Assembly (NCBI GenBank): GCA_905215385.1
Contig: CAJMPY010000006.1
Span: 5,292 to 69,291, forward strand
DNA length: 64,000 bases
Direction of reading: 5' to 3'
From: an uncultured bacterium
GTDB taxonomy: Bacteria; Actinomycetota; Coriobacteriia; Coriobacteriales; Coriobacteriaceae
The notes under the pieces were generated by a model. That model did not search any database. It was given only the letters and a program-made list of their open reading frames with translations, and had not been told where the DNA came from. Shown one piece after another: positions 37,545-47,796 of this stretch; positions within the stretch are counted from its first letter, which is position 1, and every line of letters begins with the position of its first letter. The position numbers and the translations under genes were made by a program.

Positions 37545-37967
37545 CTACGCGCCGCCCCTCAGGTGCTTCTCGAGAATCGCCCGGTACGTGTCCCCGTGGC
37601 CCGTCGCCGCCTTGCGCAGGAAGTGCTTGCCCTTCATGCGGGAAGTCCCCTCCTCGACGTACGGCGCGTACTCGACGTTGGTGCCGATGAAGCAGTCGTA
37701 GCCTTTGAGTAGGTGCGTGACGGAGTTGCGCAACCTGCCCGTGTCGACCGGGCACGTCGCCTTGGCGTAGCCCTCCGCGACGAGGCCTATCTCCTCTAGG
37801 CCCGTTTTATAGGCGCGCAGGAGGGCCTTCTCGACCTGCTCGATGTTGTTCTGCCGTATCTCGATGCACTCGGCGGTATCCAGTTTCGCGGCGTTTACGA
37901 TCTCCTCGGTGATGAGGGTCCCGTGCCGTCCTCGGTCGCCGACGCCGCCGACGAGCCCGTAGGCCAT
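37545..37967 (-). CDS. HK97 gp10-like phage protein
   Basis: 140 aa from MAYGLVGG; CPVDTGRLRNS motif typical of the gp10 family. Confidence 0.45.
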   Translation of the reverse strand: MAYGLVGGVGDRGRHGTLITEEIVNAAKLDTAECIEIRQNNIEQVEKALLRAYKTGLEEIGLVAEGYAKATCPVDTGRLRNSVTHLLKGYDCFIGTNVEYAPYVEEGTSRMKGKHFLRKAATGHGDTYRAILEKHLRGGA

Positions 37968-38188
37968 CAGTCGAGCACCTCGCAGCCGTAGCCAACGCGG
38001 CCGTTGACGTCCGCCTCGATGGCCTCGATGGCCTGCACCGGCACGCCCTCGCATCCGAGCGTGCAGCCGTCGTCTGGCGCGACCTCGTCGCCGCGCTGCG
38101 TGCAGATGTAGGTGTCCGGGAACGTGAAGCCGAAACCCAGCTTTACGGCGCAGTCGCCGCAGTTCGCGCAAGTGAATAGCTCTTTCAT
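37967..38188 (-). CDS. small cysteine-rich phage protein
   Basis: 73 aa with CANCGDC...C...C...C pattern; start overlaps the downstream gene. Confidence 0.35.
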   Translation of the reverse strand: MKELFTCANCGDCAVKLGFGFTFPDTYICTQRGDEVAPDDGCTLGCEGVPVQAIEAIEADVNGRVGYGCEVLD

Positions 38189-38270
38189 GCCTGCCCCAAT
38201 CTCTCTGCGGGCAGTGTCGCGGCACGGTCACGCGGCATGAAAAAAGCCCCGCCGTGGCGGGGCCTGTTGG

Positions 38271-38537
38271 CTAGTTATTTAGTTCGCTTTCGAATATCTC
38301 GACTATATCGGCCTCAAGAGCATCCTCGAACTTATCCGGGCCAAACAGCTCGTAGTACTCCCTGCGATTCTCGTCGTCGTATTTGGCCTCTTCAAGCCAT
38401 AGCTCCTGAACGGCTTTAGGCTTGGAATCGAGAACGTGACCTATAGCGTCGACGTCGTCTCTTCCGTCGAGATAGCTAACGGCTTCGTTGAGTATGTCAT
38501 TCATGATGCTCAATCTTGAAACCGAACCTCTCCTCAA
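38271..38537 (-). CDS. small acidic protein immediately after the MuF-JAB gene (candidate immunity/antagonist partner); start uncertain (MRRG at 38537 or MNDIL at 38504)
   Basis: 88 aa, very acidic C-terminal half; locally lower GC (about 50%) than the surrounding phage DNA. Confidence 0.4.
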   Translation of the reverse strand: MRRGSVSRLSIMNDILNEAVSYLDGRDDVDAIGHVLDSKPKAVQELWLEEAKYDDENRREYYELFGPDKFEDALEADIVEIFESELNN

Positions 38538-40269
38538 TCGCCCGAAACAGCCTGTCTTCGTTGCCGCCGTAAAGCCTTTGGATTCTAAGGTACTTCACCT
38601 CATCGACATTATAGGACGCATCCGGCTCGGAAACCTTCTCGAACGTGTAGATACTTCCATCGTGAGCTGCGATTATCCCCATCTCGCAGCCCTTGCCGCC
38701 GACCGCCAAAAGGTCAGCCGCGCTCGGGATGCCAGAGGCCGGGTGGTTGTGGAGCAGCACTACGCGCCGACCGTCCCCGATTGCCGCCTCGACCTTCTTG
38801 CCGAACTTCGCCGGAGGGACCACGGTGCTGCCGACGGTCGAGTTAACGCAGCTCGTGATTGTCTTGCCCGTTGACAAGTCGATGGCGTAAAGGTCCTCGC
38901 CGTTCGTGCCCCCTCGGTGGCTGAGGATGCGTCTTATGCTCGCATGTACGCCGTCCGCGGCATCTTTGCCGACGGCTTTAGACACCTTTGCCCTGTAGTC
39001 CCTGCTCGCGATCTTCCCCATATCCACCGCGAACTCCATTGAGTGCTCTACCGGCTTAGCCCTCGATTTCCCGCCGCCCTCGTAGACCGTGCCGAGCGCC
39101 GAGTCCAGCACCTTCTGCTGGTCGCCCGCCGACATCTTCCTGAAGCCGCTCGACGGTATGCCGTAGTCCTCGAGCTGCCGCGAGAGCCGTTTTCGCGCCT
39201 CGGTCTTGGACACGCCCGCCGTATCCAGCTTGCGCTTGGTGCCGGGCATGTCCATGAACTCTGAGATGGTGCGGTTCGCGGGCTTCTCGCCGTTGACGGC
39301 GGGCTTGCCGGCCTTCCATTCCTCGTAGGTCATGCCCTCGGGCAGGCGGCTGAAACGCTCGCCGTCGAGCACGTCGAGTCCGTCACAGCACGCCACCAGC
39401 GTGCAGCGGCAGTTGCACGTCTCGGCATACGGCGCCTCCGGGTCGCCGGGATAGCGGCACCCGTTGCTGAACTTCTCGCCGACCTCGACCTTCTCGCGGT
39501 CAATCTTCCTGTGGCTCGAGCGCGTGCGCAGGTCAAGCGTCGCCACCCATTCCTGCTGCACATTGATGCCGAGCCCCTTGGCCCTCTTGTAGCTGTCGAC
39601 GCGCCCGGCGTTCTCCGCCGCCGTCGTCGAGGTCCGCGCCAAGCGCACCGCCGCCGCGCGGTTGGACCCAGCCACGTCCTGGATGCGCTTCGCAATCTTG
39701 GGTATCGACTCGCCGAGCAGCAGACCTTGCGTGATCTGGTTGGCGATGAGCCGGCGGTTCCACGCCACGTCCTTGGCGACGTTGACGGACGGCTTGGGCA
39801 GGTAGCTGTCGTGGTCGGTGAGCAGCCTCTGCACGGTCGACGCGTCCTGCAGCGCGTAGGCCGTGTCAACGCCAACGGCGCTCTCGACCTGCCACGTGCC
39901 GTAGTTGTAGTTCTCGGCGTAGACCTCGGGCAGTCTGCCCTCGTTGGCGGCGGCCGCGACGACGTTCGCGTGCGTCATGGCCTCGGCGCACTGCTTGAGG
40001 ACGATTCGGTAGCGCCTGCCCGCCGCGATCTTCCCGCTTCGCCAAGACCTGTATTGCGCCTTGGTGATCTCGCCGGTCTCGAGCCGCTCGCGCATCTTCT
40101 CGTCGTCGGCCTCGAACTGCGCCAGATAGCGCTTGAGGTTGGCGTAGGCCGTCTTGCTCGCCTCGCCGTACACTCCCGCCACCTCGCGCTCGAACGCCCG
40201 AATCTCGGCGTCTGAGAACTCGTGAGCGTTATCCTTCGCCATGCGCCGCCTCCAATCGTCGGCACGCAT
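38497..40269 (-). CDS. MuF/SPP1-gp7-like head morphogenesis protein fused to a C-terminal RadC-like JAB (JAMM-type) domain
   Basis: N-terminal F-like region with ETCNCRCTLV motif; C-terminal ...VVLLHNHPASGIPSAADLL...IIAAHDGSIY matches the RadC/JAB HNHPSG...PS..D signature. Confidence 0.7.
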   Translation of the reverse strand: MRADDWRRRMAKDNAHEFSDAEIRAFEREVAGVYGEASKTAYANLKRYLAQFEADDEKMRERLETGEITKAQYRSWRSGKIAAGRRYRIVLKQCAEAMTHANVVAAAANEGRLPEVYAENYNYGTWQVESAVGVDTAYALQDASTVQRLLTDHDSYLPKPSVNVAKDVAWNRRLIANQITQGLLLGESIPKIAKRIQDVAGSNRAAAVRLARTSTTAAENAGRVDSYKRAKGLGINVQQEWVATLDLRTRSSHRKIDREKVEVGEKFSNGCRYPGDPEAPYAETCNCRCTLVACCDGLDVLDGERFSRLPEGMTYEEWKAGKPAVNGEKPANRTISEFMDMPGTKRKLDTAGVSKTEARKRLSRQLEDYGIPSSGFRKMSAGDQQKVLDSALGTVYEGGGKSRAKPVEHSMEFAVDMGKIASRDYRAKVSKAVGKDAADGVHASIRRILSHRGGTNGEDLYAIDLSTGKTITSCVNSTVGSTVVPPAKFGKKVEAAIGDGRRVVLLHNHPASGIPSAADLLAVGGKGCEMGIIAAHDGSIYTFEKVSEPDASYNVDEVKYLRIQRLYGGNEDRLFRAIEERFGFKIEHHE

Positions 40270-40784: not shown

Positions 40785-41816
40785 CTAACCCACGGCCCTC
40801 GCCGCGTTGAATATGCACCGCTTAGCGTTCATCTGGTGCTCCATGACGGCCGTTTTCAACCAGCCCCAGTAAGAGCACACGCGCCTCGCCAAGCGCTCGG
40901 TGCGCCTGCGCATGTAGCGCGCGAACGCGCGTCGCAGTCGTTTCCAGAGCCTCTTTCGCAAGTCGACCCGGCGCCCGCGAGCGCACCAGATGCGATAGCC
41001 CGCGAAGTCGATGGGCTCGGCGCCGTTGCGCCTCACCTTCCACGGCTTCAGCGACAATCCTAGCCGCCCCAAAACGCGTGCGGCGATGGTCGCGGCTTTC
41101 CCGAGCGAGCGCTTTGAGTTGCCGAGAAAATAGCCGTCGTCGGCGTACCACACCTGGCATCCCGCGAGCCTCACGCGCTTGCCGCGCCGCTCCTTCGCCG
41201 CCTCCTCAACCGCGTGATACGCGAACGAGATCACGAACGCCGCCAACCGAAGCGACAGGTAGCTGCCGAGGATAAGGACGCCGTTCATCGTCGACAGCAG
41301 CGAATGGAGCAGGTAGAGGACCTGGCTGTTCTTGACATAGCGAGCCACCAGACCCTCCACTATCGCCGTCTGCATCGAGCCGTAGCAGTTGCGGATGTCG
41401 ACGTGCACGTGGTAGGCGAAGCGGTGAACCTCGCGCCTGAGCTTGCGCATCCCCAGCGCCGCGCCCTTGCCCTTGACGCCGCTCGACACCTGCCAGAAGC
41501 CGACCTTGGCGGCAAGGAGCGGCTCGAGTGCCCCGACGCACAGGTAGTTGCACACCTGCCGCTTGATGCTTTCGACGCTTATCTCGCGCAGCTTGCCGCT
41601 GTTCGGGTCGTGTTTCAGATAGGTTCGGATGGGGTCGAATGTCAGCGTCTCGGTCGAGAGCTCTAGCCAGATGCGGTCGACGAACGCCGTCTCGGTGCCG
41701 TATTCGTCGGCGACGCGCCAGCCGTTCTCCTTGCCGGAGTCGCTTTTCTTCCATCGGTGCAGGGCCTCGACGACGCTCTTGCGCGTGAACTCGAGGCCCT
41801 TGCAGTAGGTTTTCAT
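40785..41816 (-). CDS. DGR-type reverse transcriptase
   Basis: 343 aa; RT motif VWYADDGYFLG (YxDD); adjacent to the TR/VR repeat pair that shows adenine-specific differences. Confidence 0.8.
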   Translation of the reverse strand: MKTYCKGLEFTRKSVVEALHRWKKSDSGKENGWRVADEYGTETAFVDRIWLELSTETLTFDPIRTYLKHDPNSGKLREISVESIKRQVCNYLCVGALEPLLAAKVGFWQVSSGVKGKGAALGMRKLRREVHRFAYHVHVDIRNCYGSMQTAIVEGLVARYVKNSQVLYLLHSLLSTMNGVLILGSYLSLRLAAFVISFAYHAVEEAAKERRGKRVRLAGCQVWYADDGYFLGNSKRSLGKAATIAARVLGRLGLSLKPWKVRRNGAEPIDFAGYRIWCARGRRVDLRKRLWKRLRRAFARYMRRRTERLARRVCSYWGWLKTAVMEHQMNAKRCIFNAARAVG

Positions 41817-41973
41817 AGATCAAAGCTCTTTCTGTCTGTCATACGAGCGTTCGCCTTGCGGCTACCAGCCCGTGAGCCTTGCGGACAAATTTCACTCAAA
41901 GGAGTCAGGCTGAGCCGCGTCCCGCCAGAAAGCGGCGGGCGCGGTAGACACGGTGCGAGTAGAGATTTATAGA

Positions 41974-42086
41974 CAGATTGCCGGGAGACGAAGTTCCAAG
42001 TGGCCCTACCGGACCTGTTCCTCGAGTTCGCGTAACGAAGACCGGCCGTCGAGCCGTTCCTCAGGTTGCCGAGGAACTGAACCAGA
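41974..42086 (-). repeat. DGR template repeat (TR), 113 bp, intergenic between the target gene and the RT
   Basis: Aligns with no gaps to 42187-42299; 18 mismatches, 17 of them at TR sense-strand adenines; TR contains five AAC codons in the target frame. Confidence 0.8.
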
Positions 42087-42163
42087 AACCAGCGCCGCCC
42101 TCACCGTGAATCCCTGTTTGGAGTCAGGAGGGGGCCAGCCCCCTCTCAGGGCTACGCCCTGAT

Positions 42164-43801
42164 TCACCCCCGGCTACGGCCCGTAGCAGAAAGCCGGGAG
42201 ACGAAGTCCCAAGCGGCCCAACCGGACCAGGGCCACGAGTACGCGCAACGAAGACCGGCCGACGAGCCGCCCACCAGGTCGCCGAGGAACCGAACCAGAC
42301 GGATCGTGCCCTTGACCTTACCGCCGGAGGTGTCGAAGTAGAAGTAGTCACCGACACCGGTCGTCGCCGAGCCGCCGAGCCCCTTTCCCAAGATGAGGCC
42401 GTTGACGAACTGGATGTCGAGCATGTAGCCATCTGCCGCCGGCATGCACGCCGCCGTCGGGGTCACCCCGTCCGCCACGGCGTTCTTCTTCTCATTGCGT
42501 GTGTCGGGGTTGACCGCGATGCCGAAACCCGTGCCGTCGGAGACGAAGAGCGTATCGCCCATGAACTCCCACAGGCCCAGCCCCGTCTCGACGCCGCCGA
42601 CCTTGAACGGATGCTTGCCGTCCTTCGCCACCTGGCCGTCGCCCACGAGGGCATCGGTGTTGCCCGTGCACCACGGCGCACTCTGGATCCATGTGTTCAC
42701 GGTCGTGTCGAACGCCTTGGCGACGTCCATGAGAAGCGCCACGTTGCCGTCTGCGAGCGTCTCCTTGCCACCGACAACGGCACCGTCGAACACGTCGTAC
42801 GCCGCCGCGGCGCCTCGGTCTGGGCACTTGGTGCCCGTGTCGGTGCCGTACATCAGCGACGCGCCCACGGGGATACTCGCGGCCTGCGACGCGGTCACGA
42901 CGACGCGCGTGACGCCCGTCTCGGCGATTGCCGGGTGAATCTGCACGTTGAAGTCGGTGCAGCCCGGGAAGTCCACCTGGGAGGACTTGCACAGCGTCTT
43001 GGTCAGCTGGTGGAAGTTGACGTACCACTGGTCGTAGGCCGACATTCCCGAGTAGCCCGTGGTCGCCGTCTTGCACAGGTCGATGAGCGAGTCGTGCGAG
43101 GTCACTCGATTGGCGATCTTCGCGCCGGAGACGGAGCGCGGACGCCCGTCGGCGTCGATGCTCATCGGGTACGTCGGCGTCAGCATGTACGGTCGCAGCG
43201 TGCCGTCCGGCAGCAACGCCTTGGGGTTCGGCTGCGAGCCGCTGAATCGGCTGTCGGACCACGAGACGAGCAGGTTGCCGTTCGTCAGTACCTCGACCGC
43301 CTGCCACACGACCGGCGCGATCTCGTAGACGTTGTTGCCGCGTCCGTTGTCCACACGCGAGAAGCCGTAGTCAACGCCGTCGATTGCCTCGACCCACGGC
43401 ACGCCGTCGGCGTCGGCACCGGCGTTGGCGGACACGTGGAACCACGGGCCGCCCTCGGCGTCGAACGGGTCGACAGCCGCGCTCGTCGCCGTCGCGGGCA
43501 CGAACTCGGTGGAGGCCACGCGCTTCGCGGCGGCGCTCATGGGCTGGATGTCGGTGGGGCTGCCCGCCGGGATGAGGAACGTGTACACCAGCCCCGTCTT
43601 GTGCTTGTCCACCATCGCGGCGACGCTCTCGTTGGAGTAGCGGCCCGTCGAGGCGTCGCGCTCGAGCGACTTCTGGTCGCCCAGATTCTTCACCGCGCCG
43701 ACCAGCGCCCACACCGCCTCGTCCGATGCCAGCGGGTCCGCGTACTCGAACCCCTCGGTTGCCTGCTCGGTTGCCTGCTCGGCTGCCTGCGTATCGGCCA
43801 T
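42164..43801 (-). CDS. DGR target (variable) protein, 545 aa, with a C-terminal variable region
   Basis: VR covers codons about 500-538; C-terminal W/G-rich segment fits a CLec/Ig-like variable ligand-binding tip; its start is coupled to the stop of the upstream 301-aa ORF. Confidence 0.7.
   Translation of the reverse strand: MADTQAAEQATEQATEGFEYADPLASDEAVWALVGAVKNLGDQKSLERDASTGRYSNESVAAMVDKHKTGLVYTFLIPAGSPTDIQPMSAAAKRVASTEFVPATATSAAVDPFDAEGGPWFHVSANAGADADGVPWVEAIDGVDYGFSRVDNGRGNNVYEIAPVVWQAVEVLTNGNLLVSWSDSRFSGSQPNPKALLPDGTLRPYMLTPTYPMSIDADGRPRSVSGAKIANRVTSHDSLIDLCKTATTGYSGMSAYDQWYVNFHQLTKTLCKSSQVDFPGCTDFNVQIHPAIAETGVTRVVVTASQAASIPVGASLMYGTDTGTKCPDRGAAAAYDVFDGAVVGGKETLADGNVALLMDVAKAFDTTVNTWIQSAPWCTGNTDALVGDGQVAKDGKHPFKVGGVETGLGLWEFMGDTLFVSDGTGFGIAVNPDTRNEKKNAVADGVTPTAACMPAADGYMLDIQFVNGLILGKGLGGSATTGVGDYFYFDTSGGKVKGTIRLVRFLGDLVGGSSAGLRCAYSWPWSGWAAWDFVSRLSATGRSRG
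42187..42299 (-). repeat. DGR variable repeat (VR) at the 3' end of the target gene (encodes ...LVRFLGDLVGGSSAGLRCAYSWPWSGWAAWDFVSRLS)
   Basis: Cognate of the TR; followed within 1 nt by the palindrome GCTACGGGCCGTAGC (42173-42187) and the stop codon. Confidence 0.8.
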
Positions 43802-44707
43802 TTAGGCACCTACCTTTCGCATCTGGCAAATCTTGCCGTTTACCTTCTTGAGTCCCAGCGCCGTCACGGCAGCCGCCGAGTCGATAATCGACTGGTAGTT
43901 CAGGGCTGCCGTCTTGGCGTCCTTGAGCGCCGCCTGCGCGTCGGCGAGGGCCTTGGTCGAATCCTGCTCGCGCTTCTGCTCGGCGGTCTTGCGCCCCACC
44001 TCAGCCTCCTTGCGCTCCGTCTCGGAGGTCTTGCGCTCGGACTCGGTCTGCCCGCGCTCGGTCTCGGCGTCGGCGCGCTTTTTCTCAGCCGTTTCGACAG
44101 AAGCCTTGAGCTGCTTGAACTCGTTGTTGACCTTGTTCACGCCAGCCGCCGCGTCCGTCGCGGGCTTCTTGAGCTCCGCGATCTGCTCGGCGGTGAGGTC
44201 GCTGTATCTCAGCGCGTCGCCCTTCGGCACGCCGACGACCAGCACGTTGTTCTCCATCGTCGCCGTTGCCTCCGAGCCCGAGGCGAGCGTCGTGGCTCGT
44301 GCCCCCTTGACCTCGGCGGCGACAGCCTTGTCGCGTGCGGCCTCCGCCGCCTTCTGCGCGGCCCTGGCCTCGTCTCGCGCCGCCTCTGCGTCCTTGATGG
44401 TGCGCTGGTCGCTCGGCTCGTAGATGTACTCGGCGGGCTTGGCTCGCCTCTTTACGTCCCAGAGCGCCTCGATGCGCGTGCGTCCGCCGTATGCCTCGTC
44501 CGTGATGTAGGCCCATGCGTACACGCGCCCAGCCACCTGGAGCAGCTCGTCGGGAATCTTCGCCTTGCTGTCGGCAACCGCGACCGTGTAGCACGTCCCC
44601 GTGGTCGACTTGGCGAAATGCACCTGCTCGCAGCCGACAACCTCGACCTCGCGCCCGGTGTCCCACTGCCACAGCTCGCCGTCAAGCACCTGCAATGCCG
44701 CCATCAC
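43802..44707 (-). CDS. hypothetical coiled-coil protein between the portal and the DGR target
   Basis: 301 aa; long E/K/A-rich helical C-terminal half. Confidence 0.4.
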   Translation of the reverse strand: MMAALQVLDGELWQWDTGREVEVVGCEQVHFAKSTTGTCYTVAVADSKAKIPDELLQVAGRVYAWAYITDEAYGGRTRIEALWDVKRRAKPAEYIYEPSDQRTIKDAEAARDEARAAQKAAEAARDKAVAAEVKGARATTLASGSEATATMENNVLVVGVPKGDALRYSDLTAEQIAELKKPATDAAAGVNKVNNEFKQLKASVETAEKKRADAETERGQTESERKTSETERKEAEVGRKTAEQKREQDSTKALADAQAALKDAKTAALNYQSIIDSAAAVTALGLKKVNGKICQMRKVGA

Positions 44708-46164
44708 TCATCACCTTCCTCGTCCTCGTCGTTGTCGTCGTCCTCGTCGCCCTTCTGGGCGCCCTTCGCGTTCGCCGCCAGGGCGGGCGGCAGCGCTGCC
44801 ATGCGCTCCTCCTGCTCCCGCTGCTTGCGCTCCAAAATCTTCGCCCTCTCGTCGGGCGTGATGTTCGGCAGCTTTCGCAGGATCGTCTCGTCGTCCAGAT
44901 ACTCGGCCTCCAGGCACACGGTCTCGACCTGTTCCTTGGTGTTGCTGATGCGAGTGTGCGTGAACACGGGCGTGTCCTCGATGCCCTGCAACGCAAGGAT
45001 GTCCATGATACCCTCGCGGATGTGGCGCTCGAACTCGGCGGCCTCCTCGTCCATCGGCTGGTATGCCGCGTCGATATGGTCGTTGGTCGCCCCCGCCGCG
45101 ATGGTGTGGACGTCCAGCGCGCCGAAGTCCTCGTAGATGTCGGCCTTGATCTGCGCCAGCGTCTCCTTGCGGCCCTCGACGGGCACCTCCTGCGTGTACG
45201 GCGTCACGGACTGCCCCTGCTCGGCGTCGACCTCGGCCACGTGCGTCAGCTTGAGCTTCGCCCGCCACAGGTCGAGGTCCCTGTCGTCCATGCCGCCGGC
45301 TCCGTTGATGAGCCAGTAGATCTGCGCGCAGTCGCGCGTGTCGTTCACCAGGCCGCTCTTGATGAGGTCGTAGGCGTCGATGCTCTCGCGCATGCCGACG
45401 AGCGTGCTCTGGTGCGCGTCGCTGCCCCAGACCGCCACGATGGGCAGGCGGGAGTAGTTTTCCGCATCGACGGCCAGCTTCATCCCGTCCGCCGGTATCT
45501 CCCGATACGTGACCTTGTAGGCGCGCTTGGCCTCGGCCACCTCGAAGTCGAAGCCGCTGCCGCCCGACACCATCTCAGTGTAGCCGTCCTGCTCGTAGAG
45601 GGTCGCGTGCCACGGGTGGTCGGAATCGAGCCGCCAGAACCTCACGCCGGCGTATAGCGCCCCCGAGTACTCGTCCCACACCGGGCAGAACTCGTCGGCG
45701 GTGAACACATCGATGTGGTCGAGGTTCCAAAACGGGAACGACACACCGTGGATGAGCGCCTTGAGCCCCATCTCCATGACATCGTCGTCGAAGCGGTCGC
45801 CAAGCCCCTCCTTGGTCGTGTCCTTGCCGCCCGCCGAGACGTCCACGAAGCTCACGCCCTTACCGAGCGAGTATGTGCAGCGCTGGACGTTTAGGCGCTT
45901 GAACAGGTTACTCGCCAGCCTCAGCTTCGAGGCCGTGAAGTCCTCGGCCTCGGCACCGGAGCACGAGTAGATCTTCTGCACGAAACGGTTGATCGTGACG
46001 TTGTGCTGGCGGTAGTACTCGTTCGCGGTGACGGCGTTGCGGTACATCTCGCTCGACATGTGCCGCTCGATGGCATCGGCCGCGAACGCCGTCGCCGACG
46101 CCGCCTCCTTGAGGTCGCCATCGGTCACCAAAGGCCCCTTAGACAAGCCGCTACCTCCCTCCAA
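44704..46164 (-). CDS. portal protein
   Basis: 486 aa, acidic C-terminal tail (DEDDDNDEDEEGDE), directly downstream of the large terminase gene. Confidence 0.7.
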   Translation of the reverse strand: MEGGSGLSKGPLVTDGDLKEAASATAFAADAIERHMSSEMYRNAVTANEYYRQHNVTINRFVQKIYSCSGAEAEDFTASKLRLASNLFKRLNVQRCTYSLGKGVSFVDVSAGGKDTTKEGLGDRFDDDVMEMGLKALIHGVSFPFWNLDHIDVFTADEFCPVWDEYSGALYAGVRFWRLDSDHPWHATLYEQDGYTEMVSGGSGFDFEVAEAKRAYKVTYREIPADGMKLAVDAENYSRLPIVAVWGSDAHQSTLVGMRESIDAYDLIKSGLVNDTRDCAQIYWLINGAGGMDDRDLDLWRAKLKLTHVAEVDAEQGQSVTPYTQEVPVEGRKETLAQIKADIYEDFGALDVHTIAAGATNDHIDAAYQPMDEEAAEFERHIREGIMDILALQGIEDTPVFTHTRISNTKEQVETVCLEAEYLDDETILRKLPNITPDERAKILERKQREQEERMAALPPALAANAKGAQKGDEDDDNDEDEEGDE

Positions 46165-47383
46165 AGAATGGGTTTACCTGCTCTTTCGCAGGCTTGTACA
46201 TGCGCATGGTCGCCACGCCGTAACGGAGCGCGTCGCAGCTGTGGTCCTCGACCTTGACGGGCCTGTCGCCGTCCGCCTTGGCGTCCCAGCAGTAGCCGCC
46301 GAGCTCGCCTATCAGCCCCGCGCAGGCGTCGGAGATGCGCACTGAGCCGTCGCCCAGGCACACCCCCGTCTCTCGTATGCCGTCCGCGACGTCGTTGCGC
46401 CCCTTCTTGGTCTTGAAGCCAGCCTGCCGCATCGCGGCGATGAAGCTCGTGGCGCTCGGGTCGATGATGAACAGGGGTGGCTTGCTCAGCCCGCCCACGA
46501 AGTCGGCCATGTCGGCCACGTAGTCGGCGTCCGTCTTCTGGTGCCCCGTGTCGCGGCCCGAGTAGCGGTACTCGTCCACCACGTGCCACACCTTGCCGTC
46601 AAACGCCCACAGCAGCGCCGCGAAGGCGTTTTGCGTGCCGTAGTCGCAAGACACCGCGTACTTGACGGCGCTGCCCTCATATCGGCCCTCGAGGGCGCCC
46701 TTGAAGTCCGGGTAGATAAGTCCCTCCGCCAGCGTCCACAGGCCCCTGATGTATCGGTCGTAGAACACACCCCTGTACATGCGCTCGTAGCGGCTCACGA
46801 TCTCGGGTGAGAGCGTGGGGTTGTCCTGCATCTCGAAGTGCAGCACGAGCAGGTTCAACTCGTCTGCGCGATCGATGTACTCCGTTTTGAAGAAGTGCGT
46901 CGGATAGCTGGGGTTGCAGTTGAACCAGAGCTTCGACCCGTCCTCCGAGCATCGGCCGATCATCTGGTCGACGAAGCTCTGCGGGAACAGCGCCACCTCG
47001 TCGGCGTAGCATCCCGCGGCGGTCAGTCCCTGCAAGACGTCCTGGCTCTTCTCGGTGCTCGCGCCGAACAGGTAATAGGTGTTCGTCCCGATCTCGATGC
47101 GGTTCTCGCTGCGGTTGAACTTCCACGACCACCCGAGAAGCCGCAGAATCTGCCCCATCGGCCTCACGACGTTGCGCTTGAGCGTCTCGATGGAGGCGCC
47201 CGCCATGATGAAGCTGCTGCCCGAGAAGCGCCCTTGGCTCCAGAGCAGGAACCCAGTCAGCATCGCCCACGTCTTGCCGCTTCGGATGGCGCCCTCGGCG
47301 ATAACGCCCTCGCATCCGGAGGTCGGCCTGTCGAGCGACCACCATTCGGCGAGCAGCCGCTGCTTCTCGCTGAACTCCTGCAT
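46151..47383 (-). CDS. terminase large subunit
   Basis: Walker A AIRSGKT; C-terminal nuclease-like region; likely ATG at MQEFSEK (47383), inside the longer ORF 46151..47506. Confidence 0.85.
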   Translation of the reverse strand: MQEFSEKQRLLAEWWSLDRPTSGCEGVIAEGAIRSGKTWAMLTGFLLWSQGRFSGSSFIMAGASIETLKRNVVRPMGQILRLLGWSWKFNRSENRIEIGTNTYYLFGASTEKSQDVLQGLTAAGCYADEVALFPQSFVDQMIGRCSEDGSKLWFNCNPSYPTHFFKTEYIDRADELNLLVLHFEMQDNPTLSPEIVSRYERMYRGVFYDRYIRGLWTLAEGLIYPDFKGALEGRYEGSAVKYAVSCDYGTQNAFAALLWAFDGKVWHVVDEYRYSGRDTGHQKTDADYVADMADFVGGLSKPPLFIIDPSATSFIAAMRQAGFKTKKGRNDVADGIRETGVCLGDGSVRISDACAGLIGELGGYCWDAKADGDRPVKVEDHSCDALRYGVATMRMYKPAKEQVNPFFGGR

Positions 47384-47796
47384 CACTTGAGCCCCAGCGC
47401 CTCGATGAAGCCCTTGATGCGCTCGTCGTCCCTCTCGGCGGAACGGTCCTCGACGGGCCTCACGGGCTTGGCGAACTCGCTCGGGTACTTGCGCTCGAGC
47501 AGCCACGCCGCCGCCTGCCAGCTCTTGTCCGATGCCTCCATGACGCGCATCACAAGCGCCGCCTTGCGTTCCACCTCGCCCTTTTTCATGGCTTCACAAA
47601 GTTCGCGTTGATTCTCGGTACTCGGATGGTTGATCCAGCGGGAAAACGTCTGCGGCGCGACACCGAGGTATGCGGCGATGTCCTTGTCGGTCATGCCGAC
47701 ACGGCACAGCTTGATGGCATCCTTGATGCCCTCCTTGGTCAGTTTTTCACGCCCTTTTCCCGCCACAAAATCACATTTCCGCTGGTAGATAGCCAT
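47383..47796 (-). CDS. terminase small subunit (HTH)
   Basis: About 137 aa from MAIYQRK; DIAAYLGVAPQTFSRWIN HTH; stop overlaps the TerL start. Confidence 0.55.
   Translation of the reverse strand: MAIYQRKCDFVAGKGREKLTKEGIKDAIKLCRVGMTDKDIAAYLGVAPQTFSRWINHPSTENQRELCEAMKKGEVERKAALVMRVMEASDKSWQAAAWLLERKYPSEFAKPVRPVEDRSAERDDERIKGFIEALGLK

Follow-up and report, generated by a model that had tools for sequence, protein, structure and literature searches.

Our analysis of a 64,000-nucleotide stretch of DNA from a Coriobacteriaceae contig (CAJMPY010000006.1; hereafter the window) centres on a phage head-protein gene whose last part, together with the whole of the small gene that follows it, forms an exchangeable cassette. 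The first gene is a 590-residue open reading frame (ORF; 38497-40269, minus strand) for a MuF-type protein with a C-terminal JAB-fold domain, and its acidic neighbour lies within an 88-residue ORF (38271-38537, minus strand); both were confirmed in the window DNA where the original prediction, made from the sequence without database searches, had placed them. We consider that the locus probably encodes a polymorphic effector (toxin) of the MuF type, belonging to a temperate siphophage of Collinsella, with a JAB payload and a cognate small inhibitor. The N-terminal ~390 residues (MuF and linker) would act as a capsid-targeting carrier, present in a few copies inside the head near the portal, and the last ~200 residues as an exchangeable payload, a putative JAB/JAMM-type zinc hydrolase with an intact predicted E...HxH...SxxD site. 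The payload segment and the overlapping small acidic gene, probably translationally coupled, would be inherited and exchanged as one cassette. During virion assembly the small protein would most likely bind and block the JAB domain in the producing cell, as non-enzymatic immunity, and the packaged MuF-JAB protein would exit the capsid with the DNA, its enzyme acting in the cytoplasm of the newly infected cell. We infer encapsidation and delivery from what has been learnt about SPP1 gp7 and Mu F (PMC5512222, PMC5576092); that the protein is ejected and active as an enzyme, that the small protein inhibits it and what kind of substrate it has are likewise proposals.

The carrier part of the protein is readily recognized. 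Codons 1 to ~391 (39095..40269, minus strand) comprise the MuF domain and a conserved linker ending ...GDQQKVLDSAL, which is common to all of the cassette types described below. Pfam Phage_Mu_F (PF04233) matches residues 175-291, including a CNCRC motif (39397..39747, minus strand), at E=8.4e-17 and 62.4 bits (cut-off 29.6), and TIGR01641 (SPP1 gp7) matches at 2.1e-10 and 41 bits (cut-off 39.65). Hence the SPP1-gp7/Mu-F-like N-terminal region of the original prediction is established, and both motifs that it quoted, CNCRCTL and VVLLHNHPASGIPSAADLL...AAHDGSIY, are found in the 590-residue ORF. By comparison with relatives, translation is likely to start at the second methionine (ATG 40242), giving a protein of 581 residues beginning MAKDNAHEF. 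As in MuF systems generally, the gene lies within the head/packaging module, downstream of the portal gene.

To define the C-terminal boundary of the carrier, viral contigs were scanned with an alignment restricted to the N-terminal part of MuF and the downstream sequence was then examined; the comparison set comprised those loci with an N-terminal part 88-99% identical to that of the window. These N-terminal parts share sequence as far as ...GDQQKVLD(S/T/A)AL and then split into at least six C-terminal extensions. The JAB extension (L072, L074, L076, L077 and L083) is followed by an acidic ORF of the window type, the L077 contig ending before this ORF. HEXXH ('HEFGH') extensions occur as a 351-residue type (L073, L079, L081, L084, L085 and L089; downstream ORF of 60-64 residues), a 387-residue type (L075, L078 and L082; 59 residues) and a 403-residue type (L086; 71 residues). 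L087 carries a 266-residue Gln_amidase/Tox-PL1 papain-fold toxin extension (PF15644, E=1.7e-10) with a downstream ORF of 88 residues, and L090 a 217-residue extension of unknown type, followed by an ORF of 79 residues. Each cassette type thus has its own distinct downstream ORF (59-88 residues), abutting or overlapping the stop codon. No single uniform extension was found among the MuF homologues; rather, the JAB domain is replaced, with sharp breakpoints, by alternative C-terminal domains on near-identical N-terminal parts, every cassette being GC-poor, as the original proposal of a swapped-in module had anticipated. The HEFGH domains of L073, L075, L084 and L086, which represent all three types, gave no Pfam match and have partner ORFs of ~60-70 residues; judged by their sequences, they are probably undescribed zincin-like MuF payloads.

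The limits of the exchange could be placed closely. In blastn comparisons with L073, L075, L084, L086, L087 and L090, homology runs from 42000 to ~39095 and returns from ~38264, so that the replaced block is 38265-39094 (minus strand), an 830-nt cassette that takes in the C-terminal JAB domain of MuF and all of the small gene, ending 6 nt past the stop codon of the latter. The cassettes of sister phages span 0.8-1.4 kb at the muf end. The composition of the block is foreign: its GC content is 0.565 against 0.646-0.663 in the flanks, and the alternative cassettes are all similarly poor (0.55-0.61 against flanks of 0.63-0.68). The impression that the C-terminal region and the next gene were less GC-rich is borne out, with a GC content of 0.51 at 38300-38700 against flanks of ~0.65. 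Because GC content at third codon positions falls as well (0.80 and 0.70 in the two halves of the JAB domain and 0.59 in the small gene, against 0.87-0.97 in neighbouring genes), the dip is not an amino-acid effect alone.

Variation among JAB-type copies tells a similar story. Over 28 copies (the window and 27 loci, L013-L061), nucleotide diversity is 0.003-0.015 at 38300-38900 and 0.03-0.09 on both sides, the trough coinciding with the low-GC portion of the cassette, and the neighbouring MuF part shows 3-6 times the synonymous divergence of the cassette. The pattern points to a recent sweep or exchange of this block; the alternative is constraint on the DNA or RNA itself. Ratios of non-synonymous to synonymous polymorphism are low for both the JAB domain (0.12) and the small gene (0.29), hence both are under purifying selection. 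Taken together, these sequence patterns fit a recently spread, functional, horizontally exchanged module. A strong GC-rich hairpin with a T-run (38244-38265, minus strand), terminator-like by consensus match only, coincides with the right-hand breakpoint of the cassette and lies within the late operon, where it might act as an attenuator or as a landmark for recombination.

The exchange has consequences for the notion that the JAB domain is a head-maturation or self-processing protease that cleaves scaffold, coat or MuF in the procapsid and has no role in the next host. Such an enzyme would be expected to stay with its head module; however, L073, L075 and L087, in which the flanking head genes are ~96-99% identical in DNA sequence, bear unrelated domains instead, and one replacement domain has no protease motif, which is hard to reconcile with an enzyme that has to match its substrates. 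It is true that the JAB domain is always tethered to procapsid-resident proteins, that library scans revealed no other protease in the head module and that PHROG 595, labelled 'head maturation protease', matches this protein; nevertheless, that match covers only residues 25-344, within the MuF part, and not the JAB domain. Nor would a cassette-specific small partner gene be expected, and phages with a separate scaffold and a P22-type coat usually need no protease. The domain is not conserved with scaffold and coat, and we have rejected this explanation as very improbable.

The JAB/MPN (JAMM-type) domain itself occupies residues 411-590 (38500..39039, minus strand) and ends exactly at the C-terminus of the protein. 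It consists of an N-terminal three-helix part followed by a beta-beta-alpha-beta(HxH)-alpha(SxxD)-beta-beta core, in which a strand ends with HxH and the following helix opens with SxxD, a JAMM-like order. The predicted metal-site motif is H507-N-H509-PASGIP-S516-AA-D519 (HxHx6SxxD; 38713..38751, minus strand) and the predicted catalytic glutamate is E458 (38896-38898, minus strand). Among 77 diverse long relatives E458, H509, P515, D519, G531, H536 and G538 are invariant and H507 and S516 at least 90% conserved; HxHx6SxxD is retained in 137 of 145 representatives, the spacer always being six residues. Structural comparison matched the domain to BilC (8.4), Rpn11 (7.9), BRCC36 (7.8), AfJAMM (7.3), RadC (7.1) and Cap3 (7.0), and identity to the best structural matches (PfJAMM1, Rpn11 and BRCC36; bacterial BilC and Cap3) is only 9-15%. 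Thus, by predicted structure and motif, the C-terminal domain is a JAB-fold domain with an intact E...HxH...SxxD catalytic constellation, and a predicted enzyme.

This identification is made on structure and catalytic motif, even though no HMM reaches threshold. The last 180 residues (MEFAVD...IEHHE) had no significant match in Pfam, PHROG, NCBIfam or PADLOC, a Pfam scan of the isolated domain at E<=10 gave zero matches, and the window domain reached no curated JAB model at gathering score. Several relatives match Prok-JAB at 16.8-20.1 bits (cut-off 25) and RadC at 17.1 bits (cut-off 22.1) over the same residues, below threshold in each case. A sequence search of the PDB returned RadC 2qlc only, at E=0.5, then 0.21 and then 0.016 as the query profiles were widened, all sub-significant, and PHROG 10276 ('DNA repair protein') matched at E=0.046, below significance. 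There is therefore no significant sequence match, across the PDB, Pfam and PHROG, that would place the domain in the RadC clade (PF04002). The domain also contains HNHPASG and the invariant H536 in 'AHDG', which may correspond to the HNHPSG and 'DH' motif of RadC. Of the RadC/JAB domain originally predicted, the JAB part stands by structure and motif, and 'RadC-like' survives only as a description of the nearest, sub-threshold sequence neighbour.

A profile search of 1.84 billion cluster representatives returned 1020 relatives at E<=1e-3 and 649 at E<=1e-10, clade size being counted as clusters at 50% identity. In all 145 relatives examined the JAB domain extends to the C-terminal end of the protein or stops a few residues short of it, and in 76 of the 77 long relatives scanned it has an N-terminal partner from the phage head: Phage_min_cap2 (33), Phage_Mu_F (28), VG15 (14) or portal (1). 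By its sequence relatives, then, the domain belongs to a large, phage-head-specific clade that lacks annotation. The original prediction had called a JAB domain delivered by a capsid protein an unusual payload; the same clade ends more than 1000 head-protein clusters, and 'unannotated' is the better word. In BFVD the domain best matches the C-terminal ends of gut-siphovirus 'minor capsid proteins', and the cultured phages that have the domain are only Anaerostipes phages AC844P1-3 and Streptococcus phage MissF. Fusions to Pfam 'VG15' (PF25310) are found as proteins of ~440-460 residues (among P0084-P0125), and in one case the domain is fused to a complete portal protein of 659 residues (P0121); hence the carrier can be any procapsid-resident protein and not MuF alone.

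The small gene is the second component of the cassette. Its 88-residue frame, opening at TTG 38537, is probably too long; judged by sequence, the gene (38271..38513, minus strand) more likely starts at TTG 38513 ('MSIM...', 80 residues) or at ATG 38504 (77 residues), the former being favored because homologues begin MSI and an SD-like (Shine-Dalgarno-like) GGAGAGG lies upstream. Either start overlaps the JAB stop codon (38497-38499), with which ATG 38504 forms ATGAATGA. The predicted protein is all-helical with an isoelectric point (pI) of ~4.2, and has 53 homologue clusters. Related small acidic ORFs overlap the JAB stop codon at the same position behind JAB domains of only 34-48% identity, in genomes of Senegalimassilia and Olsenella and in other divergent viral-metagenome contigs. 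At this place the members of the Firmicutes type, among them Streptococcus phage MissF and Anaerostipes phage AC844P2, have a different acidic ORF of 45-57 residues. An ORF of the window type follows the JAB domain at all four loci with downstream sequence and none of ~70 non-JAB MuF loci. The small gene is thus co-inherited with the JAB domain, inside the swapped block and over a wide range of divergence, in keeping with the earlier suggestion that it would be conserved beside such domains.

These features make the small protein a candidate cognate inhibitor or immunity protein. It could instead be no partner of the JAB domain, being an independent moron (for example an acidic, DNA-mimicking anti-restriction protein) or an assembly factor that hitch-hikes with the cassette. 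The very acidic, all-helical character of the protein, its lack of a recognizable fold and its solitary occurrence in some chromosomes are all compatible with this; hitch-hiking, however, hardly explains why a different small ORF occupies that place in each alternative cassette, and the gene overlaps the JAB stop codon, co-occurs with the domain over wide divergence and changes in sequence together with it. We therefore regard an unconnected small gene as rather unlikely. A homologue with 79% identity stands alone and intact in a 405-kb bacterial contig (L009:5001-5246; also L010 and L011), where no MuF, JAB or head genes were found nearby. Orphan copies are typical of immunity genes, and by analogy this lone copy looks like one.

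Several observations weigh against a toxin paired with its immunity protein, and should be set beside the evidence above. Among the 77 long relatives scanned, the JAB clade was seen on phage head proteins only and never on RHS/LXG-type carriers. Since most MuF toxin domains recur in other polymorphic toxin families (PMC5576092), this confinement may be a sign of a role peculiar to phages and not of a generic toxin. For the small protein, AlphaFold2 gave a four-helix model with a pLDDT (predicted local distance difference test) of 85 in the best model, one of the five models being confident, and a fold search with it returned no recognizable fold match. The spacer between HxH and serine is six residues in this domain, and in canonical JAMM sites it is seven. 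Three of the five interruptions found in the MuF-JAB ORFs of close relatives fall just before the JAB domain, so that its fusion to MuF is not strictly kept. Finally, RadC, the nearest sequence neighbor of the domain, has no established peptidase activity, and the role proposed for it involves nucleic acid (PMC5512222, PMC3482391).

The interruptions occur in 5 of 38 close relatives, the ORF being intact and fused in the other 33. In L005 and L007 a TCG to TAG change splits MuF from an intact 180-residue JAB ORF (L005:2753-2778), and a 1-nt deletion in L006, at window position 39086, has the same effect. The L005/L007 and L006 lesions are independent and fall within ~50 nt upstream of the JAB domain (window equivalent ~39040-39090). 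The separate JAB ORF (P0001) is 100% identical, 180 residues long, represents a 23-member cluster and was read on five contigs; a first, word-indexed homologue search, which missed the full-length proteins, had returned short proteins only (115-297 residues). A separate JAB gene or a programmed split as the norm was rejected in view of the 33 fused copies and of the scatter of the other breaks, one of which lies within the JAB domain (L065). Self-cleavage at 'EGGGK', at the domain boundary, was also dropped, as the GG is not conserved in L012. The split forms are treated here as sporadic prophage decay or tolerated variants.

The kinship with RadC raises the question of substrate. A capsid-delivered, RadC-like JAB enzyme might process DNA or RNA, its target being either the nucleic acid of the host or the termini of the genome that is injected. 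Every RadC score is sub-threshold, however, nuclease activity of RadC is undemonstrated and a hypothesis only in the cited papers, and the alternative cassettes of this phage lineage hold peptidase-fold domains, not nucleases; a nucleic-acid enzyme is accordingly unlikely, if worth keeping in mind. By analogy, a protein, peptide or isopeptide substrate is more likely than nucleic acid, since HEXXH and papain-fold domains can take the place of the JAB domain, whose JAMM site is intact.

It is tempting to speculate that such a peptidase acts on host defences. In one version it would be a counter-defence isopeptidase resembling Cap3 or BilC, which strips ubiquitin-like protein (Ubl) modifications made by type II CBASS (cyclic-oligonucleotide-based antiphage signalling system), Bil or Bub, either after entering the cell with the DNA or at a late stage in the producing cell, the small protein being a regulator or a second anti-defence factor. 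Ubl-specific JAMM isopeptidases (PfJAMM1, Rpn11, BRCC36, BilC and Cap3) are indeed the best structural matches of the window domain and have the same E...HxH...S..D constellation; unlike them, it has no sequence-level match, and PADLOC gave 0 matches to the defence JAB proteins Cap3 and BilC for six family members. No Ubl, E1 or E2 genes lie nearby, the neighbors being phage structural genes, and a literature search on anti-defence roles of RadC/JAB proteins or on MuF-JAB fusions found nothing specific. This version appears improbable. Equally doubtful, in our estimation, is the variant in which the domain, as founding example of a large JAB clade confined to phage heads, is a virion-delivered isopeptidase that reverses Ubl conjugation in the same three systems, or cleaves another specific host protein, with the small protein serving as inhibitor in the producer cell.

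The reading that we prefer, a MuF-borne toxin with its own inhibitor, has clear precedents. MuF polymorphic toxins of temperate phages have been described by Jamet et al. 2017 (PMC5576092) and Zhang et al. 2012 (PMC3482391; see also the framework in PMC5512222), and the characterized examples, Apk2 (a MuF-(p)ppApp synthetase) and Bxa (a MuF-ADP-ribosyltransferase), each have an adjacent gene for a small, non-enzymatic immunity protein (PMC11699363, PMC12226406). The present locus has in common with these systems the N-terminal MuF carrier in a head-morphogenesis module, the variable C-terminal domain on near-identical carriers, the cassette-specific small ORF downstream and the GC-poor exchangeable block. 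It differs from known MuF toxins in its JAB/JAMM-fold payload, in that the toxin and immunity roles are those of candidates only, and in the retroelement cassette between portal and muf. The MuF toxin domains listed in the main texts of PMC5576092, PMC3482391, PMC11699363 and PMC12226406 do not include JAB/JAMM, nor does it appear in those parts of the supplementary files of Jamet et al. that we consulted. The kind of system is thus already known, and a MuF-JAB cassette with this partner family appears not to be described in the literature examined.

Two further groups of JAB domains invite comparison. The RadC-type JAB domains of polyvalent proteins (Iyer et al. 2017, PMC5512222) are likewise carried on proteins thought to be injected with DNA and have an HNHP-type metal motif, RadC being the nearest sequence neighbor. 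The window domain departs from them in falling below the Pfam RadC and Prok-JAB thresholds, in its HxHx6SxxD spacing, in its additional N-terminal three-helix part and C-terminal helices, and in its strictly C-terminal position on head proteins with a small acidic partner gene. Tox-JAB-1/2 provide the precedent of a JAB fold as a C-terminal toxin module, with dedicated immunity proteins as a feature of the Tox-JAB systems. JAB toxin domains are tabulated with type II, VI and VII secretion systems (T2SS, T6SS, T7SS), TcdB/TcaC delivery and RHS repeats, not with MuF (PMC3482391), and a Pfam scan at E<=10 found no sequence match between the window domain and known JAB toxin domains.

With only Apk2 and Bxa characterized, the purpose of MuF effectors is still debated between competitor killing, host takeover and an aid to colonization. 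The locus offers a clean natural experiment in an abundant human-gut genus, in that near-identical Collinsella phages differ only in the cassette at the muf end. The JAB clade is recognized by no Pfam, PHROG, NCBIfam or PADLOC model, yet ends more than 1000 head-protein clusters. Definition of the substrate would reveal the role of a capsid-delivered JAB domain, and it could illuminate the long-standing question of RadC-like JAB activity. A practical gain would be the annotation of a widespread 'minor capsid protein' extension and of its small partner gene.

The host of the prophage is Collinsella (Coriobacteriia), and the region recurs in many Collinsella genomes and gut viral contigs at 94-99% DNA identity. 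By its gene content, the locus sits in the late operon of a siphovirus-type temperate prophage. The head/packaging module opens with the large terminase TerL (46151-47506) and an SPP1-type portal gene (44704-46164), followed by a 301-residue protein, a diversity-generating retroelement (DGR), a 113-residue protein, muf and two small genes; the order continues with an HK97-gp10-like neck protein, scaffold, P22-type coat, major tail protein and tape measure. Just outside the cassette, a 73-residue Cys-rich protein (CxxCxxC...C...C...C; 37967-38188, minus strand) is conserved and found with all cassette types, and has no family match.

The DGR lies between the portal and muf genes (40785-43801, minus strand) and is absent from the relative L012, in which muf directly follows the portal gene. 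Its reverse transcriptase (40785-41816, minus strand) matches PHROG 1423 at 1.6e-31. The template repeat (TR; 41974-42086, minus strand) and the variable repeat (VR; 42187-42299, minus strand) form a 113-nt pair in which 17 of the 19 mismatches fall at template adenines, and the VR, inside the target gene (42164-43801), is at the 3′ end of the gene for a 545-residue protein with a tail-protein-like C-terminus. Elsewhere, a 120-kb contig (L001:1-7880) contains a prophage remnant reduced to the linker and JAB part (292 residues), the small gene, the 73-residue gene and the gp10-like gene, and this remnant directly adjoins a type II-A CRISPR-Cas locus (Cas9, Cas1, Cas2 and Csn2).

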